Below, piece by piece: positions 1 through 6,093 of a DNA stretch of 6,093 bases (the stretch's first letter is position 1; each line of letters opens with the position of its first letter). Made by a program: the position numbers and the translations under genes. The notes under the pieces are model-generated. The model was not told the origin of the DNA. It ran no database searches and saw only the letters and a list, made by a program, of their open reading frames with translations. This DNA is from a virus. Location: the IMG/VR virus record IMGVR_UViG_3300045988_041325, positions 1-6,093 of that record. One strand, given 5' to 3'.

Positions 1-55
1 AAATCCGAATGCATTTAAGTCTCGTAAAACCGACCAATTTCTTTCGGTACTCCCT
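1..55. repeat. Terminal direct repeat, copy 1 (assembly overlap of a circular genome)
   Basis: The 55-nt string aaatccgaatgcatttaagtctcgtaaaaccgaccaatttctttcggtactccct at 1-55 is identical to 6039-6093, checked base by base. Unit length is therefore 6,038 nt. Confidence 0.95.
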
Positions 56-1246
56 TTGTGTGCTTACCAGAAAATTTATTTTGATTTTTATTCTAATTCT
101 CAATGGGAGCGTCACCTTGCTTACTCTTATAACACTGATTATATGCTGCAAGTTCAGGTATTCGACACTAATTTGGACAAGGAAATGATTAAACTCCGTT
201 ACGCGAATTATAACAAGGATTACTTTATGGGCGTTCTTCCTAACTCGCAATACGGTGATGTAGCGTTAGTTCAAGGTTCATTTACTACAGATAAAGACCT
301 TACTCTATTAGCATCTACTACTAATGCAGGCATTCAGGGTGTTTACCCTAATGGCTCGAACCCTCGGGATTTTAATTTAAAGCTTAATTCTCAAGTTGCT
401 TCGGGTTTTACTGCTGATAAACCACTATTTATCTCTAAGGGTGAAATAGCTAAAATCCAATCTTCGGTTTCTTATCTTGCTGTTCGTGCATCTGAATATC
501 TTCAGCGATGGAAAGAGGTAGTTCAATTCTCGTCTAAAGATTATAATGACCAAATGAAAGCCCAGTTTGGTGTTCGTGGTGACGATTCAATGGGTAACCA
601 TGCTCATTATATTGGCGGTTTTGATGGTAACATAGATATCTCCGAAGTTGTGAATACAAACCTTGACACTGAGGGTTCTCAGGCAAATATTGCAGGTAAA
701 GGCGTCGGCTCAGGACGTTCTAGAAAAATCCGCTATACTGTAGGTGCTGAACACTGTATTATTATGTGCATTTATCATGCTGTTCCATTGGTAGATTATA
801 ATATTGATGGTGCTGACCCTCAATTACAGCGTATTGCTATTTCTGATTTCCCGCAGCCTGCATTCGATTCGCTTGGTTTGGAGAGTGTTCCTCTAACCGC
901 GCTTACGGCATCCGCTATCGCCCTTGGTGAAAATGATTTATCTGATTATTTTGTAGGTTATTCATTGCGTTACCCTGATTTTAAGACACGAATTGACCGC
1001 ATTTCGGGTGCATTTCAAACAACTCTTAAAAACTGGGTTGCCCCGATTAATTGGCTGAATATTCTGACTGCTCAACGTGGTCAAGGTGCCTTTAACTATT
1101 TATCATTCAAGGTTCGTCCCTCACAGTTAGACCCTATTTTTGACGTTCAAGCAGATGAAAAGGTAGACACAGATCAGTTATTATGTAATGCTCAGTTTAA
1201 CATTAAGGTAGCCCGTAATCTCTCGCGAGATGGTTTACCATATTAA
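1..1246 (+). CDS. VP1: Major capsid protein VP1 (Microviridae F/VP1 family), C-terminal ~415 codons. Same ORF as 5521-6038 once the contig is circularised.
   Basis: The frame is open from base 2 (base 1 is the third position of a codon) to TAA at 1244-1246. The M at 56 in the track is a TTG artefact. The frame of the 5521 ORF passes through the repeat into this ORF (...WFTTNPNAFKSRKTDQFLSVLP-LCAYQKIYFDFYSN...). LCAYQKIYxDFY resembles the conserved (P)FRAYxxIWNxxYRD block of microvirus capsid proteins. Combined length is 1,764 nt, i.e. 587 aa plus stop. Confidence 0.9.
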   Translation, partial: NPNAFKSRKTDQFLSVLPLCAYQKIYFDFYSNSQWERHLAYSYNTDYMLQVQVFDTNLDKEMIKLRYANYNKDYFMGVLPNSQYGDVALVQGSFTTDKDLTLLASTTNAGIQGVYPNGSNPRDFNLKLNSQVASGFTADKPLFISKGEIAKIQSSVSYLAVRASEYLQRWKEVVQFSSKDYNDQMKAQFGVRGDDSMGNHAHYIGGFDGNIDISEVVNTNLDTEGSQANIAGKGVGSGRSRKIRYTVGAEHCIIMCIYHAVPLVDYNIDGADPQLQRIAISDFPQPAFDSLGLESVPLTALTASAIALGENDLSDYFVGYSLRYPDFKTRIDRISGAFQTTLKNWVAPINWLNILTAQRGQGAFNYLSFKVRPSQLDPIFDVQADEKVDTDQLLCNAQFNIKVARNLSRDGLPY

Positions 1247-1258
1247 TATAAAAAAAAT

Positions 1259-1735
1259 ATGAATAAACGTTCATTTGGAATCACCCCCGAACAGTTCGAG
1301 GAATTTAATAATATGACATCAGAAGTACCTGATATGACTGCGGTTACTAGTGAACCGCAACCTATGCGTCAGCCGTCCCCATATGACCAGATTGCGTTTG
1401 AAGAAACTCCGTCAGGTGCATTTCGTAAGTTTGATATGACTTATTTCCTTCTCCATCAGGAAAAAACTCGTAGAAAATTAGGAGACTCCCTATATCAGGA
1501 ACTTCTAGCAAGTATGCACCCGACCCAATCAACACTTCAGGACAATCTGACTGATGACCAGCGATTTGATATGGTAATTTCTCGTCACTGTCAAACCATG
1601 TCAGAACGTCAGGCAGTTATGGATTGGTTGCGCGAAGAACATGCAGACCTTATGCAACAGTACGAACAGGCTGTGCAGGAATCTGAACAACAACAATCAG
1701 AAGCTTCTGCGCCCGCTTCTTCTTCTGCTGAATAA
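1259..1735 (+). CDS. Hypothetical acidic, Gln/Glu-rich 158-aa protein. Position and size are compatible with an internal scaffolding (VP3-like) protein, but no motif was recognised.
   Basis: ATG lies 12 nt after the VP1 stop. The TAA stop shares one base with the VP2 ATG (TAATG at 1733-1737), suggesting translational coupling. Third codon positions are T-rich, as in the neighbouring genes. I recognised no family signature by eye. The C-terminus is QQYEQAVQESEQQQSEASAPASSSAE. Confidence 0.7.
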   Translation: MNKRSFGITPEQFEEFNNMTSEVPDMTAVTSEPQPMRQPSPYDQIAFEETPSGAFRKFDMTYFLLHQEKTRRKLGDSLYQELLASMHPTQSTLQDNLTDDQRFDMVISRHCQTMSERQAVMDWLREEHADLMQQYEQAVQESEQQQSEASAPASSSAE

Positions 1736-2856
1736 TGGGACTAAGTGCTTTTCTTGCAAAGCCTGCTGCGGGCTCTCTAATTAATGGTGCTGCTTCTATT
1801 GGCTCGTCATTTCTTGGTGGATTATTTGGCGCAAATGAAGCCAAGAAAAACCGCGATTTCCAGCTGGAAATGTGGAATAGACAGAATGAATATAATAAGC
1901 CCATTAATTGGCGTGCCCGAATGGAAGAGGCAGGATTTAACCCGTACAACGCTCTTGATGGCGGTTCAGGTATTGGACAATCTTCCAGTCTTCCGCAAGG
2001 TTCGCAGGGTCCGACTGTCGAACCTGCTGTAAACCTTGCGCAAGGTGCTTCGGACATTACTCAAGCATTTGCCAACCTCGCAAACGCCCGTAAGGCAATT
2101 GCAGGTGCGAAAGGCCAGGAAGTAACGAACGAGTGGTTACCTTATACGCTTGGTGGTAACGTTGATTACAAGAATCTTGCTATTGGTCAATCAGGCTATT
2201 GGAACAAGTCACGAGGCTATCAAATGGCAGAACTCGACCAAAGCAAGGAAAAACAGGAGTTTCTTAACCTGCAATACGCGCAAAAACTTATGCAGGCTCA
2301 GGAAACACTTACCAATTTGCAAGCTGACGCGCAAGGTGTCATGAACAAGTATATAGATGCTGACAACCAGGCAAATCTAGCGATTAAGGCTCAAAACCTC
2401 GTGAATCTGGTGAAGCTGGGCGCATTAACCGAAGCTCAAGCTTCGCGCGAGATTGCCCAAACTCTTGAAACTTATGCACGCGCAAAAGGTCTGAACATAA
2501 GTAATGAAATTGCAGAAAAAACCGCTCCTGCTATTATCTCCTCGACAATTGCAACAAATGCCTTATCGGCAAAGGAAGCCCGCACCGATATGCTGAATTT
2601 CAAACAATTGTACAAGAATAAGTACGAGCGCGACTATTACAATACTCGCATTAGCGAAAAGGAAATGAAAAATTTTGACCGCAATGCCCGAATGCAGAGA
2701 TTCAATCAATTTTCTACGGGTGTCGGTAACGCCATAGGCGGTTACGGTATTCTTCGTTCAGGTTCTCGAAGCTATTCAACCTATGACGGTCAAGGCACAT
2801 TTAACGCCCCGTCCCGCTATGGTCGACGATACTATGACTCTACAGTGAGCTATTAG
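1735..2856 (+). CDS. VP2: Minor capsid / DNA pilot protein VP2 (functional analogue of phiX174 H)
   Basis: The 373-aa protein has a Gly/Ala/Ser-rich hydrophobic N-terminus (GLSAFLAKPAAGSLINGAASIGSSFLGGLFGA). This is followed by EMWNRQNEYNKPINWRARMEEAGFNPYNAL, which matches the ...QR.M.(D/E)AG(L/F)NP... block typical of gokusho/alpavirus VP2. A long Q/A/K/E-rich, helical-looking central region follows. The gene sits downstream of VP1, as in other microviruses. Confidence 0.85.
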   Translation: MGLSAFLAKPAAGSLINGAASIGSSFLGGLFGANEAKKNRDFQLEMWNRQNEYNKPINWRARMEEAGFNPYNALDGGSGIGQSSSLPQGSQGPTVEPAVNLAQGASDITQAFANLANARKAIAGAKGQEVTNEWLPYTLGGNVDYKNLAIGQSGYWNKSRGYQMAELDQSKEKQEFLNLQYAQKLMQAQETLTNLQADAQGVMNKYIDADNQANLAIKAQNLVNLVKLGALTEAQASREIAQTLETYARAKGLNISNEIAEKTAPAIISSTIATNALSAKEARTDMLNFKQLYKNKYERDYYNTRISEKEMKNFDRNARMQRFNQFSTGVGNAIGGYGILRSGSRSYSTYDGQGTFNAPSRYGRRYYDSTVSY

Positions 2857-2874
2857 GTTTATATAATCCCAACT

Positions 2875-2906
2875 AAGGTATGTCATCCGTGAGGACAGCA
2901 TGCCTT
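2875..2906 (+). terminator. Stem-loop 19 nt after the VP2 stop; weak candidate intrinsic terminator for the structural operon
   Basis: aaggtatg (2875-2882) pairs with catgcctt (2899-2906): 8 bp including one T-G wobble. An apical tcc/gga stem (2886-2888 / 2893-2895) closes a GTGA tetraloop. The downstream tract tcccttatatttt is T-rich but interrupted. Confidence 0.35.
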
Positions 2907-3104
2907 TCCCTTATATTTTAAATTCTACCTCGCCCGACACATCTCTATACTTCGTAAGTTCTGTTCTTTTCCATGATTTGTAATGTTTTTGGTTATTAAT
3001 GTTGTTTATCTTTCTTTTCATCATAAATATAACCAATCTTACAATCATGTAAATTTACCACAGAACTAACAAAGCTTTAACAAATTTTTTCCGGAAGTAT
3101 CGAA

Positions 3105-3118
3105 CGTAGAATATTCTT
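3105..3118. repeat. Copy 1 of the direct repeat CGTAGAAT(A)TTCTT; contains the 10-bp palindrome AGAATATTCT (3108-3117)
   Basis: cgtagaatattctt at 3105-3118 versus cgtagaatttctt at 3360-3372. They match at 8+5 positions with a 1-nt indel at the centre of the palindrome. The two copies bracket the structured block. Confidence 0.6.
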
Positions 3119-3138
3119 CAGCCTCTCTATTCTTCCCG

Positions 3139-3203
3139 CGACCCTCTCTCCTCCTGTCCTGTCGGCGGTAGCCGATAAAAAATGAGAGAAGGGGTCGGTT
3201 TTT
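3139..3203 (+). terminator. Nested stem-loop (polypyrimidine arm paired with polypurine arm, plus an inner hairpin) followed by T5; terminator-like or end of an ncRNA
   Basis: cgaccctctctc (3139-3150) pairs with gagagaaggggtcg (3184-3197): 12 bp with a 2-nt bulge at 3190-3191. The inner hairpin is tcggc (3162-3166) / gccga (3171-3175) with loop ggta. The T-run ttttt is at 3199-3203. The region 3121-3163 is about 36/43 pyrimidine. Confidence 0.35.
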
Positions 3204-3204
3204 G

Positions 3205-3230
3205 GTTCTTTTTGGCGAGTCAAAAAGAAC
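3205..3230. repeat. Perfect 10-bp inverted repeat with a 6-nt loop (hairpin)
   Basis: gttctttttg (3205-3214) is the exact reverse complement of caaaaagaac (3221-3230). The loop is gcgagt. Confidence 0.85.
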
Positions 3231-3275
3231 AGCCCTCAGCAAAACTATTCATGTGTTAATCAAGCGAAGCCCATA

Positions 3276-3342
3276 GTTGTCTCCGTAAGGATTTGCCATC
3301 CCTGCATGGCAAACGGTTTTCTCTTGTCTATGTACGGACAAC
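3276..3342. repeat. Nested hairpin: outer 10-bp stem with a 2-nt bulge enclosing a perfect 8-bp stem-loop followed by TTTT
   Basis: Outer stem: gttg..tccgta (3276-3279, 3282-3287) pairs with tacggacaac (3333-3342). Inner stem: tttgccat (3292-3299) pairs with atggcaaa (3306-3313), loop ccctgc, then cgg and tttt at 3317-3320. ccg at 3283-3285 could alternatively pair with cgg at 3314-3316. Confidence 0.75.
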
Positions 3343-3359
3343 TCACACAATAAAATCTC

Positions 3360-3372
3360 CGTAGAATTTCTT
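3360..3372. repeat. Copy 2 of the direct repeat CGTAGAAT(A)TTCTT (arms AGAA/TTCT around a single T)
   Basis: See copy 1. This copy lies about 55 nt upstream of the small TM ORF start. It is followed by the 12-bp AT palindrome aaaatatatttt at 3384-3395. Confidence 0.6.
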
Positions 3373-3427
3373 GCATATATCAAAAAATATATTTTCCTTT
3401 GCCTATGTAATTTAAAACATATGCCTT

Positions 3428-3523
3428 ATGAGTACAGAAAACAACAAAAAAACCAATTGGATTACTGCGGTAATTTCCGCTATTGTAGCAGCATTAACGT
3501 CATTATTGTCTAATCTTGCCTAG
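3428..3523 (+). CDS. Candidate 31-aa single-pass membrane protein (holin-like partner of the downstream peptidase); not in the supplied ORF track
   Basis: ATG 3428 to TAG 3521-3523 encodes MSTENNKKTNWITAVISAIVAALTSLLSNLA. It has a polar/charged N-terminus followed by a ~20-residue Ala/Ile/Leu-rich hydrophobic helix (W11-L30). Its stop is 2 nt before the peptidase ATG at 3526. The hydrophobicity comes partly from GCN Ala codons, so it is not simply a T-rich frame artefact. Confidence 0.5.
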   Translation: MSTENNKKTNWITAVISAIVAALTSLLSNLA

Positions 3524-3525
3524 TC

Positions 3526-3834
3526 ATGAATGAGAATCTTATGAAATTTTTGGCATTCTTGCTTCAATCGGATTGTCATTTTACCGTTACGTCTGCCTTT
3601 CGGACACCCGAACATAATAAGGCAGTCGGAGGCGTATCTAATTCTCAGCATTTGAAAGGAGAAGCTATCGACTTCAAACCGTACCCTCCTACCTCTGCTA
3701 AGTATAATAATTTGCTTGAAAAGGTGTATGAATTCCGCGAGTTCAAACCTTTCGACCAATTTATAATTTATGACAACTTTTTTCATATTTCGTTTTCCGA
3801 CCGAAATCGGAATCAAGTAATTGATAAACGTTAA
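3526..3834 (+). CDS. Minimal zinc peptidoglycan peptidase, M15 family (Peptidase_M15_3 / DD-LD-peptidase fold); putative endolysin
   Basis: The 102-aa ORF reads ...CHFTVTSAFRTPEHNKAVGGVSNSQHLKGEAIDF...DQFIIYDNFFHISF. This matches the S-x-x-R-x4-N-x3-GG-x3-S-x-H-x2-G-x-A-x-D ... H signature. The candidate Zn ligands are H42 (3649-3651), D49 (3670-3672) and H87 (3784-3786). Confidence 0.8.
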   Translation: MNENLMKFLAFLLQSDCHFTVTSAFRTPEHNKAVGGVSNSQHLKGEAIDFKPYPPTSAKYNNLLEKVYEFREFKPFDQFIIYDNFFHISFSDRNRNQVIDKR

Positions 3835-3845
3835 CTATTTTTGTT

Positions 3846-5510
3846 ATGCAGTTGGATGATTATATAAACCTAGCATCTCATTGCGAGAATCCTATGGTTG
3901 TTCGTAATCGCTTTACAGGTGAAGATATTCTTGTAGGCTGCGGTCATTGCGCGTATTGCATTTCCCGACAGTCATCTATCAATTCTATTCGTATTGCTAA
4001 ATCTGCATCTAAGTGGAAGTATTGCTATTTCGTGACGTTAACCTATGACAATGAACATATGCCTCTCATTTCCTTGACTACCCAGGAGATGATTTCGGGC
4101 GAAATCGTGTATTCTGCTGATGGACTTCGTTACTCTTCTGATACTGAGTTTAAATATATGCCTCTGCGTGCTGCTGTGGCTCAGCGTCCCGCGTTCTCCT
4201 CAGAGTATCAAACGATTTTCTGCAAACAGGTTAACGGAACTATTCCGTTTAACCGCGAGACTAAGCGGAAAGAACCCATTGAGTTTACTTCTACTGCTGT
4301 CCCTGTTGATTTGCTTTGTCTTGTCTCGAAAACAACCCCTGAGACACCATTTAATGTACCTGATGATATGGCTGTACTTCCTATACTCAACTATTATGAT
4401 TGTCAAAATTATGTAAAAAGATTACGTATAAATTTAAATAGACTCGGTTGCAATGAAAAGATACATTTCTACGCTGCGGGTGAATACGGACCTGTTCACT
4501 TCCGCCCGCATTTCCATCTCTTATTATTCGGAAACACGCAGGAATTCTCCGAAACAGTTCGACAGGCTCACGCTAAGAGTTGGACGTTCGGTCGTTCAGA
4601 TATACAACTTACCACAGGAGGCGCTTCTTCTTACGTTGCGTCATATATTAGTGCCAATAGTATGCTTCCCGTCTTTTATCGGCAATCGAAAATTATGCGA
4701 CCCAAAAGCCGCGCTTCGTTGCGTTTCGATATGGAAGCACAGGAACCTGCTTCGTCTTCAGACGAAGAGATTGCGCGGGTTGCCTCTTACATCTGTGATG
4801 GACGAAGCTTTATCGTCAACTCTAAACATATTAGCGTTAATGCCTCCCGTTCGTATCTCAATACCGTATGTCCCCAATTCAATGGATTTCGAAGAACTGA
4901 TATTGATGAAATATCTTTCCTTGTTCAATCTGTGGCAACGGCTTCTCAACGACTCAAACTCTTCCCTAAAAAGAGAGATTCCGAACAAGTAGGTGTTTCT
5001 GTTCTTGCGATTTCTCGTGCATACCTAGATTGTATATCTTCAAAAAATAGTTTAACTTATGAAGACTATTCCATTCTAAATCAGTGTCGTATGATTTCCC
5101 CGAATGGCTTTCATATTGGTGGTAGAATCCTGAATCCCGAGATTGCTCTAGGCTGTATATATCGGCTATTCCTTACCGTGTCCAAATTTCTACGGTTTTG
5201 GAAACTTCCCGACAGTCCCTCATTCCATGAGATAAAAAAAATATATATTCGATGTTTCGCTGCTCTTGATGCCCGCGAACTTCGACTTCTTCAAGAAAAA
5301 TATTCCCTTGCTGAAGCTGTTTCGGATGAATATGCAGATTATAATCATTATACCTTATTCTTACCGAAAGATATTGGTTTGAATTTGCAGGATATTTATA
5401 AAGATGCCTATTTGGAAAGATTGTTGAAAAATAATAATGCCGCAAAGGCTCGTCGGCTTGTGAAACACAAGCGATTAAATGATGCCAACGGTTTATTTGC
5501 TAACATATAA
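3846..5510 (+). CDS. VP4: Rolling-circle replication initiation protein VP4 (HUH endonuclease, phiX174 A-like)
   Basis: 554 aa. The N-terminal Cys cluster is CENP...CGHCAYC. RCR motif I is FVTLTY (4029-4046). Motif II is HFRPHFHLLLFG, with HFH at 4509-4517. Motif III is YVASYIS, with two Tyr spaced Y-x3-Y (4632-4634 and 4644-4646), as in phiX174 gpA. The YVKRLR...EYGPV block lies upstream of motif II, as in other microvirus VP4s. Confidence 0.93.
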   Translation: MQLDDYINLASHCENPMVVRNRFTGEDILVGCGHCAYCISRQSSINSIRIAKSASKWKYCYFVTLTYDNEHMPLISLTTQEMISGEIVYSADGLRYSSDTEFKYMPLRAAVAQRPAFSSEYQTIFCKQVNGTIPFNRETKRKEPIEFTSTAVPVDLLCLVSKTTPETPFNVPDDMAVLPILNYYDCQNYVKRLRINLNRLGCNEKIHFYAAGEYGPVHFRPHFHLLLFGNTQEFSETVRQAHAKSWTFGRSDIQLTTGGASSYVASYISANSMLPVFYRQSKIMRPKSRASLRFDMEAQEPASSSDEEIARVASYICDGRSFIVNSKHISVNASRSYLNTVCPQFNGFRRTDIDEISFLVQSVATASQRLKLFPKKRDSEQVGVSVLAISRAYLDCISSKNSLTYEDYSILNQCRMISPNGFHIGGRILNPEIALGCIYRLFLTVSKFLRFWKLPDSPSFHEIKKIYIRCFAALDARELRLLQEKYSLAEAVSDEYADYNHYTLFLPKDIGLNLQDIYKDAYLERLLKNNNAAKARRLVKHKRLNDANGLFANI

Positions 5511-5520
5511 ATTTATACTT

Positions 5521-6093
5521 ATGTCAGATTTTAATCCTCTTGTTCGGAAATCAATTCCAACCCATCGTTCAGGATTTGATATGTCCGAAAAAAAGATGTT
5601 TACCGCCAAGGTTGGTGAACTCTTACCTGTGATGTGGCAATATGGAATACCTGGTGATGTCTTCGAGATTTCTGAAGATTGGTTTACCCGTACCCGTCCT
5701 GTTAACACTTCTGCTTATACTCGTATCCGTGAGTATTATGATTTTTATGCTGTTCCCTTGCGTCTTCTTAATCGCAATCTTCCTACTGCATTTGCACAAA
5801 TGAGTGATTATGCTGTATCTGCTATTAATAAGTCGCAAAACTCTTATTTAATGGAGGATATCCCGAATGTCTCTCAGAATATTTTGGAACGCACGTTTAC
5901 GTCATATCTTAAACCTACTGATTTGGATGATGCCGGTTTCCCTGTTCGTGCTACTTCTCAGAAACTTTTAAATTATCTGAATTATGGTGCTATCGATTCC
6001 GAGGTATCGGCATCTAGTATGACTTCATGGTTTACTACAAATCCGAATGCATTTAAGTCTCGTAAAACCGACCAATTTCTTTCGGTACTCCCT
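5521..6093 (+). CDS. VP1: Major capsid protein VP1, N-terminal part. It runs off the window end; 6039-6093 duplicates 1-55.
   Basis: ATG at 5521, 10 nt after the VP4 stop, followed by 191 codons with no stop up to the window edge. MSDFNPLVRKSIPTHRSGFDMSEKKMFTAKVGELLPVMWQYGIPGDVFEISEDWFTRTRPVNTSAYTRIREYYDFYAVPLRLL matches the N-terminal hallmark of the Phage_F capsid family (H.rSgFDlS...fTak.GeLlPv...PGD.f......R..P......d.y.F.VP.RLL). It is absent from the ORF track only because it has no in-window stop. Confidence 0.92.
   Translation, partial: MSDFNPLVRKSIPTHRSGFDMSEKKMFTAKVGELLPVMWQYGIPGDVFEISEDWFTRTRPVNTSAYTRIREYYDFYAVPLRLLNRNLPTAFAQMSDYAVSAINKSQNSYLMEDIPNVSQNILERTFTSYLKPTDLDDAGFPVRATSQKLLNYLNYGAIDSEVSASSMTSWFTTNPNAFKSRKTDQFLSVLP
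6039..6093. repeat. Terminal direct repeat, copy 2 (assembly overlap of a circular genome)
   Basis: Identical to 1-55. Confidence 0.95.

Follow-up and report, generated by a model that had tools for sequence, protein, structure and literature searches.

The stretch of viral DNA considered here, IMG/VR record IMGVR_UViG_3300045988_041325 (positions 1 to 6,093; all 6,093 nucleotides were analyzed and are called the window below), is the genome of a microvirus. Between the gene of the DNA pilot protein and the replication gene rep it carries two small neighboring genes on the plus strand, one encoding a peptidase of the M15 type and the other, directly upstream, a hydrophobic peptide of 31 amino acids (aa); their coordinates are given in Table 1. 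A preliminary description of this DNA, made from the letters alone, had singled out the peptidase open reading frame (ORF) for its M15 signature and had numbered its putative metal ligands H42, D49, and H87; the reading frame and the numbering are confirmed by the sequence, and the M15 assignment by the match to PF08291 and by the predicted fold. The share of the genome that it assigned to this ORF, about 5%, is also accurate (5.1% of a circle of 6038 nucleotides (nt)). New here is the finding that the peptidase is paired with the mini-gene for the membrane peptide, which is conserved and has so far escaped annotation.

The peptidase and its short form

On sequence grounds the enzymatic family assignment of the peptidase is solid. 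The match to Pfam PF08291 (Peptidase_M15_3) scores 52.5 bits with E=6.3e-14, the curated cut-off being 23.2; PHROG 894, labeled 'endolysin', matches at E=5e-20, and the Pfam M15_2 and M15_4 models give sub-threshold matches. A collection of 5.8 billion proteins contains 51 homologues, an exhaustive search of a library of 1.84 billion representatives returned 1524 clusters at E<=1e-3 and 30 at E<=1e-10, and peptidases 94-95% identical to that of the window are present in JGI and ENA assemblies. The best sequence match in PDB, as found by phmmer, is 1lbu, whose residues R138, H154, and D161 are aligned to R26, H42, and D49 of the peptidase; the zinc ligands of 1LBU are H154, D161, and H197 (as cited in PMC13461873). 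In the window, R26 is encoded at 3601-3603, H42 (cat) at 3649-3651, D49 (gac) at 3670-3672, and H87 (cat) at 3784-3786.

Conservation was analyzed in an alignment of 35 homologues, both short and long forms, covering 35-95% identity. The residues S23, R26, N31, G35, G36, S40, Q41, H42, L43, G45, A47, D49, D77, Q78, H87, S89, and R95 are invariant, and this set comprises the complete SxHxxGxAxD motif and the histidine of the (W/F)xH motif, the two motifs that define the assayed PF08291 endolysins LysPM1 and ST79 (PMC13461873, PMC5025407). R26 is proposed to be the conserved active-site arginine, and the invariant D77 is a candidate for the role of the catalytic acid. An AlphaFold2 model built on the same alignment has a mean predicted local distance difference test score (pLDDT) of 93.8 and a predicted template modeling score (pTM) of 0.84. 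The first Foldseek match of this model is again 1lbu (E=8.7e-4, template modeling score 0.61 normalized to the query), followed by Hedgehog N-domains, VanY, and LdcB; the matches in BFVD are other microvirus peptidases and many tailed-phage proteins named 'Peptidase M15A'. The model thus confidently predicts a Hedgehog/DD-peptidase (LAS) fold, and the juxtaposition of H42, D49, and H87 is predicted from homology together with this fold. Both the profile search and the structure prediction, named in the preliminary description as checks on its M15 assignment, came out in its favor.

The peptidase gene is under purifying selection. Between the window and two close relatives (L002 and L003), the numbers of variable columns at the three codon positions are 6/3/32, and there are 61 synonymous versus 18 nonsynonymous codon differences; for nine more distant genomes the respective numbers are 974 and 627. 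Taken with the family assignment and the conserved motifs, the protein is very probably an active murein peptidase of the M15A type, muralytic activity being suggested by homology to the assayed PF08291 endolysins, although the bond cleaved and the substrate specificity cannot be inferred from the homologues.

The PF08291 match spans profile positions 38-107 of 108, that is, less than the complete domain. Canonical homologues of 130-150 aa have approximately 35-40 extra N-terminal residues with a consensus close to 'KYFTIxELxxSxTA…IxNxP', which the microvirus proteins lack. The top matches in the 1.84-billion search are full-length proteins of about 100 aa, and the long forms align from query residue ~15-20. 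Judging from these alignments, the peptidase represents a truncated short-form subfamily of PF08291, about 100 aa in length, and is still a member of the family. The trimming is more extreme than in LysPM1, as the first histidine is at position 42 rather than 63. Neither a signal peptide nor a signal-arrest-release (SAR)-like or other hydrophobic N-terminal segment was found in the peptidase, where no hydrophobic window reaches the threshold; its first 25 residues have a mean Kyte-Doolittle value of 0.52, and helix 3-14 is part of the fold. No second domain or wall-binding domain was found either, so that the earlier characterization of the protein as a bare catalytic core without signal peptide or wall-binding domain holds.

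A fusion or SAR-endolysin reading, which could be derived from the 21-aa N-terminal extensions in the records of Dulem virus 226 (METHYWSRLRSS…) and Dulem virus 243 (MEDYHWSCFRCS…), was considered and rejected. The extension is non-hydrophobic and runs, in a different frame, over the conserved mini-ORF; these extensions are thus over-called starts: the peptidase coding sequences in GenBank (L083, PP511396, 3935-4309; L086, PP511322, 3998-4372) begin 21 codons too early, the conserved start being MNVMLMSF… or MNVLLMSF…. A programmed peptide-peptidase fusion is unlikely, since across lineages the frame relation of the two genes varies from different frames with a 2-nt gap, through a 4-nt overlap, to the same frame with an intervening stop.

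The mini-gene and its pairing with the peptidase

The 31-aa ORF upstream of the peptidase, to which the preliminary description had referred, is a real gene. In the window its stop codon lies 2 nt before the ATG of the peptidase. The clade sample comprised 24 genomes, namely the window, 18 contigs from IMG/VR or ENA, and five GenBank records, and in all 24 a homologous ORF of 26-31 aa is situated directly upstream of the peptidase (for instance MKSNNIWKIIIGAVSAALGYILNAIGL, MKTNKQNLWRLIIGAVSAALGYVLNSLGL, and MKSETKSKIWSAIIAAAVSLLTSIAQIFS), in most of them overlapping the peptidase start by 4 nt (ATGA). A hidden Markov model (HMM) of the peptide scores each of the 24 genomes at E=1e-12 to 1e-16. 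Among 14 distinct sequences the variable columns are distributed over the codon positions as 9/3/20, and pairwise comparison of 14 genomes yields 610 synonymous and 175 nonsynonymous codon differences in frame, compared with 125/677 and 49/727 in the other two frames. This codon signature demonstrates that the mini-ORF is coding, not merely conserved DNA, and the mini-gene is under purifying selection.

The peptide consists of a short polar N-terminus containing lysine and a single hydrophobic span from residue 10 to the C-terminal residue 31; by the positive-inside rule it is probably oriented with the N-terminus in and the C-terminus out. A lipoprotein or spanin reading was rejected, as the peptide has no cysteine and no lipobox. 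The mini-ORF is not annotated in the records OP549867, PP511396, PP511646, MZ089802, and PP511322, and an exact look-up of a 27-aa version in a collection of 15 billion proteins retrieved 'hypothetical protein' entries only. In three IMG/VR contigs (L008, 50-346; L011, 459-761; L018, 37-327) the mini-ORF is located 29-117 nt from the peptidase start without overlap, and the space between the two holds short duplicates of parts of the peptidase N-terminus. This spaced arrangement may be an artifact of terminal redundancy or assembly, since in two of the three contigs the peptidase lies within ~50 nt of the contig end.

The peptide is specific for the microvirus context. Its HMM detected nothing in ~60 larger viral contigs carrying homologous long-form peptidases, nothing in 80 bacterial genome loci with homologous peptidases, and nothing in eight peptidase-less microviruses that have the same capsid-scaffold-pilot-rep backbone and capsids 33-40% identical to that of the window. 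The comparison with syntenic relatives lacking the gene is based on these eight GenBank genomes, all of which keep the backbone and have no peptidase; a capsid-based scan of IMG/VR gave three loci. The stretch from the pilot gene to rep acts as a variable slot for accessory genes, since other small membrane proteins are found there in the backbone relatives (L090, 4177-4374; L091, 4311-4505; L092, 4658-4849; L094, 4310-4405). Three of these slot ORFs are homologous to each other, ~64 aa long, and possess lipobox-like segments (…LFVQAC, …WFCVSC, and …LTAQSC) followed by serine-rich tails, and thus possibly encode small lipoproteins; one peptidase-less relative has a 31-aa amphipathic or transmembrane peptide, MKPVWKVVLYVAEALLSAIKVVFGGKDKDSK, in the slot. 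The slot proteins of the peptidase-less relatives may be alternative lysis or exclusion modules.

A similar pair of genes was observed in a second microvirus lineage (MG945328, MG945336, MG945875, MT135448, and MT135365), whose genes are arranged as VP4-VP1-VP2-peptidase and whose peptidase has 131 aa. Here an ORF of 29-30 aa (MTKEQLNKISNALCALISAVCAALSYFFS or MLTKEKLTRISNGICALISAICAAISYFLS) overlaps the 3' end of the peptidase gene in all five genomes. All seven nucleotide differences in this mini-ORF between L100 and L103 are synonymous, as are eight of the nine variable codons among the other three genomes. The peptides resemble that of the window (…AVISAIVAALTSLLS…), with HMM E-values of 0.005 and 0.024 in a small search space, and homology of the peptides of the two lineages is plausible. 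Scans of IMG/VR with a single sequence and with a two-sequence alignment found no relatives of the MG945328-type peptidase; three further members of this type were supplied by the GenBank phage collection. In addition, a hydrophobic ORF of 29 aa is annotated immediately behind the peptidase gene of microvirus mar52. A block of elevated identity of ~700 nt around the peptidase was reported for MG945328 and MG945336 (Kirchberger et al. 2022, PMC9239249). As this block exceeds the peptidase gene of ~400 nt, and the mini-ORF overlaps the 3' end of that gene, the mini-ORF may have moved together with the peptidase.

Genome context, host, and origin

The features of the window are listed in Table 1. 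An exact direct repeat of 55 nt at positions 1-55 and 6039-6093, which is the assembly overlap, demonstrates that the genome is a complete circle of 6038 nt. The major capsid protein gene wraps the junction, and for that reason it appeared in the ORF list as truncated with a spurious TTG start at position 56. The ORF at 1259-1735 has weak, sub-threshold family matches only, and an 'internal scaffolding protein' is annotated at the same position in the related Dulem, bajarodmic, and chicken microviruses; the position of the VP2 gene likewise matches the annotated pilot genes of the relatives. No GenBank record exceeds 49% identity to the capsid protein, and relatives with 80-90% nucleotide identity over the whole genome are present in IMG/VR and ENA.

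Table 1. Genes and sequence elements of the window
Feature	Position	Strand	Remarks
Major capsid protein gene	~5521-6093 joined to 56-1246		Wraps the circle junction
158-aa acidic ORF	1259-1735		Follows the capsid gene and precedes the pilot gene; placed like an internal scaffolding protein
DNA pilot protein (VP2)	1735..2856	+	PHROG 8689 'pilot protein for DNA ejection', E=3.8e-8; bounds the variable interval on its upstream side
Upstream region without plus-strand ORF >=30 aa	2857..3427		~570 nt between the pilot gene and the mini-gene
Mini-gene, 31-aa single-pass membrane peptide MSTENNKKTNWITAVISAIVAALTSLLSNLA	3428..3523	+	Candidate holin-like partner
Peptidase gene, 102 aa plus TAA stop, 12.0 kDa, putative endolysin	3526..3834	+	Short-form Peptidase_M15_3
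SxHxxGxAxD zinc-hydrolase motif, codons S40-D49, ligands H42 and D49	3643..3672	+	
(W/F)xH motif, codons F85-F86-H87, third zinc ligand H87	3778..3786	+	
Replication initiator (Rep/VP4)	3846..5510	+	Pfam REP_ORF2-G2P, E=3.9e-13; PHROG 942, E=2e-37; directly downstream of the module

The closest cellular homologues of the peptidase belong to the long form and mostly share 34-47% identity with it; the overwhelming majority is from Bacteroidales (Parabacteroides, Prevotellaceae, Muribaculaceae, Dysgonomonas, Rikenella, Bacteroides, and Phocaeicola). The host is probably a member of the Bacteroidales, and this homologue taxonomy agrees with the Bacteroidetes host inferred for alpavirus-like gut microviruses (PMC3394797). 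No related microvirus prophage, and hence no host link of that kind, was found among the bacterial loci. Three of these loci, L112, L113, and L117, whose similarity to the peptidase starts at its N-terminus, were considered as microvirus prophages and rejected, as capsid, Rep, and pilot genes are missing from them and so is the mini-peptide.

The preliminary description had viewed the peptidase gene as horizontally acquired cargo inserted before rep. The position is correct, and a horizontal origin is plausible given the Bacteroidales homologues, but the acquisition was not recent. It appears to be old, because the module is common to genomes whose capsids are 41-49% identical to that of the window and its composition is not distinct; a recent insertion was rejected on the latter ground, the G+C content of the ORF (0.37-0.40) being like that of the rest of the genome.

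The upstream region presumably carries the promoter of the module, origin-related hairpins, or both. Positions 2942-3427 fall within the best-conserved blocks of the alignment with L002 and L003 (~90% identity). The region contains a perfect 10-bp hairpin at 3205-3230 (GTTCTTTTTG/CAAAAAGAAC, with a 6-nt loop) and a terminator-like hairpin at 3292-3313 followed by a T-rich run, and the DNA fold of 3050-3330 has z=-2.5; the hairpins could act in transcription or as a complementary-strand origin. No meaningful match to Rfam was obtained for the window as a whole, and a sigma-70 promoter scan, whose model does not cover Bacteroidales promoters, performed no better than on shuffled sequence.

Immediately after the pilot gene, L002 (3187-3730) and L003 (4552-4991) contain ~320-410 extra nt with complementary-strand ORFs conserved between the two at the protein level, one of 83-90 aa (EKNKTYEVWRML…NVSGDVEFKM) and a second of ~90-110 aa, for which no Pfam or PHROG family was found. 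Complementary-strand genes are unusual in Microviridae. The minus-strand ORF of the window at 2911-3048(-) (…RDVSGEVEFKI) looks like a C-terminal remnant of the former gene, and because of this resemblance the window appears to be a deletion derivative. Across the wider group (L001, 3618-3914; L004-L019, L083-L086, L089, L090, and L092) a conserved soluble ORF of ~55-65 aa (MQKFIISVKEK…IVIVDSIKEE…) is located upstream of the slot; no Pfam or PHROG family was found for it, and it has no counterpart in the window and its three close relatives (HMM E>0.9).

A candidate lysis module, its alternatives, and known systems

Lysis of the host is the likely role of the peptidase, as the preliminary description had supposed. 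Like an endolysin, the peptidase is a soluble enzyme without secretion signal or SAR domain whose gene adjoins that of a small membrane protein; the mini-peptide in turn has the basic properties of a holin, namely at least one transmembrane helix, a small size, and a gene adjacent to that of the putative endolysin. A folded enzyme with neither signal nor SAR segment cannot reach the murein unaided and hence would need a partner. In tailed phages such access is given by a holin encoded beside the endolysin. Whether the mini-peptide acts as a holin-like partner of this kind is nearly an even question, and we put the chance slightly below one half. As a whole, a two-gene lysis module consisting of a signal-less endolysin and a holin-like mini-peptide, in a microvirus that likely infects Bacteroidales, is the explanation that we favor with some confidence.

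According to this scheme, region 3428-3834 would be a miniature holin-endolysin cassette with translational coupling, provided by the 2-nt gap in the window and by the 4-nt ATGA overlap in its relatives. The folded signal-less Zn2+ peptidase of 12 kDa (M15A/Peptidase_M15_3, with H42, D49, and H87 as predicted ligands) would build up in the cytoplasm, while the peptide would build up in the inner membrane and eventually breach or depolarize it. The small enzyme would then gain access to the murein and cleave its peptide stems or cross-links, so that the host cell would burst and the virions be released.

Several observations weigh against this scheme. The matches of the peptide to holin families are all sub-threshold, the best being Pfam Phage_holin_3_3 with E=0.033 (14.8 bits versus a cut-off of 28.4) and the PHROG holins 443, 689, and 785 with E=0.011-0.13, and even this similarity could reflect the generic composition of a transmembrane helix. 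Holins of classes I-III have a hydrophilic charged C-terminal tail and comprise roughly 60-150 aa; the mini-peptide has no such tail, and even small canonical holins are more than twice as large, so if it is a holin, it is an atypical one, and a peptide of 26-31 residues may be too small to make lesions that pass a 12-kDa protein. The weak similarity between the peptides of the two lineages may be due to convergence. Among other M15-bearing microviruses, mar59 has no convincing hydrophobic partner and mar54 has only an amphipathic 35-aa ORF, and the pairing is therefore frequent, not universal. No outer-membrane (spanin-type) function is evident in the module.

As for the enzyme, it lacks ~37 positions at the start of the Pfam domain, and the acidic residue D106 proposed for LysPM1, two positions after the last histidine, corresponds to the invariant Ser89, which leaves the catalytic base uncertain. 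M15 domains are also present in virion-associated lysins of tailed phages. Finally, the activity and the role of the peptidase are predictions, and in the full-text library that was searched we found neither a cultured representative nor an enzymatic or genetic test of a microviral M15 peptidase, the latter in agreement with the preliminary description, which knew of no functional work.

The main rival to the two-gene scheme is that the mini-peptide is itself the lysis effector, either of the single-gene-lysis 'amurin' type or simply membrane-disrupting, similar to the 35-37-aa peptides of single-stranded RNA (ssRNA) phages, and that the peptidase is an accessory that speeds or finishes the breakdown of the wall, independently of any holin, after the membrane or wall synthesis has been compromised. 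The length of 26-31 aa indeed fits the ssRNA-phage lysis peptides, such as the 37-aa LysM (PMC12506998), better than canonical holins, and the lack of a charged C-terminal tail points in the same direction. Further, the presence of other small membrane proteins in the slot of peptidase-less relatives suggests that such proteins may suffice alone. However, a self-sufficient peptide should sometimes occur without the peptidase, whereas the co-occurrence of the two is strict (24 of 24 genomes of the clade, five of five in the second lineage, and none of the eight peptidase-less relatives), and purifying selection clearly acts on the peptidase, in a genome with very little capacity to spare. We thus consider a self-acting peptide unlikely. 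A role of the peptidase in entry is even less probable; the enzyme would then be carried in or on the virion and open the murein locally for the DNA conduit of the pilot protein, in the manner of the virion-associated lysins of tailed and membrane-containing phages. M15A domains do occur in tailed-phage proteins that look virion-associated (Gp5-like hubs and wall hydrolases of 500-1200 aa in BFVD), and the peptidase gene lies downstream of the pilot gene; but its product is a free-standing protein of 102 aa encoded ~570 nt away from the structural block, with no plus-strand ORF in between, unlike a virion-associated hydrolase, whose lytic domain is fused to the structural module or encoded inside it. 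Moreover, translational coupling to a membrane peptide is a signature of lysis cassettes, the backbone relatives with the same pilot protein dispense with the peptidase, and the module of the second lineage is situated elsewhere in the gene order. We know of no structurally characterized microvirus with a virion enzyme, and a T=1 capsid would offer little space for one.

The missing N-terminal part of the domain and the serine in place of the acidic residue of LysPM1 could also be taken to indicate a weakened or non-lytic protein with the M15 fold, which would bind murein or muropeptides, remodel the wall for replication, or, together with the peptide, take part in superinfection exclusion; Hedgehog N-domains share the fold and are not peptidoglycan peptidases. 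Yet short and long forms alike retain all three metal ligands, R26, and the SxHxxGxAxD motif without exception, as expected of an active enzyme, and the closest assayed relatives are endolysins, which makes a non-lytic role highly improbable. Returning to the holin-endolysin scheme, a bolder version of it is possible but doubtful: the peptide would be a genuine holin, by far the smallest known, forming with the ~100-aa peptidase a mobile cassette of ~400 nt that arose in microviruses and is passed from one of their families to another by recombination. That it originated there is suggested by the lack of the peptide beside the homologous peptidases of tailed phages and bacteria, and movement between families would explain the block of elevated identity in MG945328 and MG945336.

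If the peptide is a holin, the smallest size known to suffice for holin function would have to be revised downward, and phages with single-stranded DNA (ssDNA) would be seen to use the holin-endolysin strategy in miniature. We know of no experimental tests of lysis by microviruses outside the phiX174 group, although such microviruses are among the most abundant phages of animal guts. The pairing with the mini-peptide turns a vague 'accessory peptidase' into a defined and testable two-gene module of ~400 nt. The stand-alone 12-kDa enzyme, likely to be active on Bacteroidales walls, is a candidate enzybiotic scaffold. For annotation, the consequence is that five public microvirus records lack the mini-ORF and that two Dulem peptidase starts are over-extended across it.

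The peptidase alone adds nothing conceptually, and the novelty implied by the preliminary description does not stand, since an endolysin role was proposed for microviral M15_3 peptidases in 2012, when Roux et al. found PF08291 peptidases in 11 human-associated (gut or lung) microviruses, five gokushoviruses and six alpaviruses, and showed their horizontal transfer (PMC3394797). Nor are such ORFs 'sporadic', as had been stated there. Kirchberger et al. 2022 described peptidases as recurrent lysis-associated accessory genes, and the peptidase as linking several families and able to move by recombination (PMC9239249); M15 peptidases are also present in marine isolates of Occultatumvirinae (PMC11499846), 'horizontally acquired bacterial peptidases' are referred to in the gokushovirus resurrection paper (PMC7062461), and even for vB_RpoMi-Mini, with 4.2 kb, a gene related to M15 family peptidases has been predicted. 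A tblastn search of GenBank phages gave 370 records for the peptidase. Dozens of ~6-kb GenBank microviruses from lemur, rodent, dog, marmot, and human label the orthologue, 46-63% identical and in the same position before rep, as 'peptidase', for instance OP549867, the Dulem viruses, and mar56. The peptidases of gut Microviridae described by Roux and Kirchberger share with that of the window the PF08291 domain, the virus family, the type of habitat, the proposed role, and, for alpavirus-type genomes, the affinity to Bacteroidetes; the window peptidase differs from them in belonging to the short-form clade of ~100 aa. In the texts of PMC3394797 and PMC9239249 the word 'holin' does not occur in connection with a microviral partner gene.

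The closest assayed counterparts of the peptidase are LysPM1 of Proteus phage Homer (116 aa), which is muralytic in experiments and requires Zn2+ (PMC13461873), and the 'peptidase M15A' of Burkholderia phage ST79, also muralytic in experiments (PMC5025407). Both have the same domain, motifs, and H/D/H triad and, like the window peptidase, consist of a single domain without a wall-binding domain. The window peptidase is shorter, with its first histidine at position 42 rather than 63 (LysPM1) or 77 (ST79), it has serine where LysPM1 has D106, and it comes from an ssDNA phage. 1LBU, the Zn2+ D-Ala-D-Ala carboxypeptidase of Streptomyces albus G, which is the M15A type enzyme in MEROPS, is the best match by both structure and PDB sequence, but it carries an additional peptidoglycan-binding domain at the N-terminus, and its HxH motif contains a catalytic histidine at whose position the window peptidase has phenylalanine, as do the phage PF08291 enzymes.

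A comparable gene arrangement is present in the cultured Bacteroides fragilis phage B40-8 (NC_011222; B40-8009, 8010, and 8011), whose host belongs to the order inferred for the window, and in which, according to RefSeq annotations only, a homologous M15_3 'endolysin' is encoded directly downstream of a membrane-protein gene; gene contexts similar to this layout were described by Roux et al. (PMC3394797). In B40-8, however, the peptidase is a long form of 132 aa, the holin candidate upstream has 131 aa and two predicted transmembrane segments, and the downstream neighbor is an N-terminally anchored spanin-like protein of 201 aa, whereas the module of the window has a 31-aa peptide with one transmembrane segment and nothing spanin-like. 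The ssRNA-phage lysis peptides (for example the 37-aa LysM targeting MurJ; PMC12506998) are comparable to the mini-peptide in size and in having a single transmembrane segment; they act alone by blocking the supply of murein precursors, in contrast to the strictly enzyme-linked mini-peptide, which has no sequence similarity to them. Within the virus family itself, the counterpart is protein E of phiX174, where host lysis also involves a small membrane protein. Protein E has 91 aa, is overprinted in gene D, and inhibits MraY without any wall-degrading enzyme; to our knowledge, it is the only characterized lysis system of a microvirus. The genes of the window, in contrast, are free-standing in an intergenic interval, and one of them encodes an enzyme.

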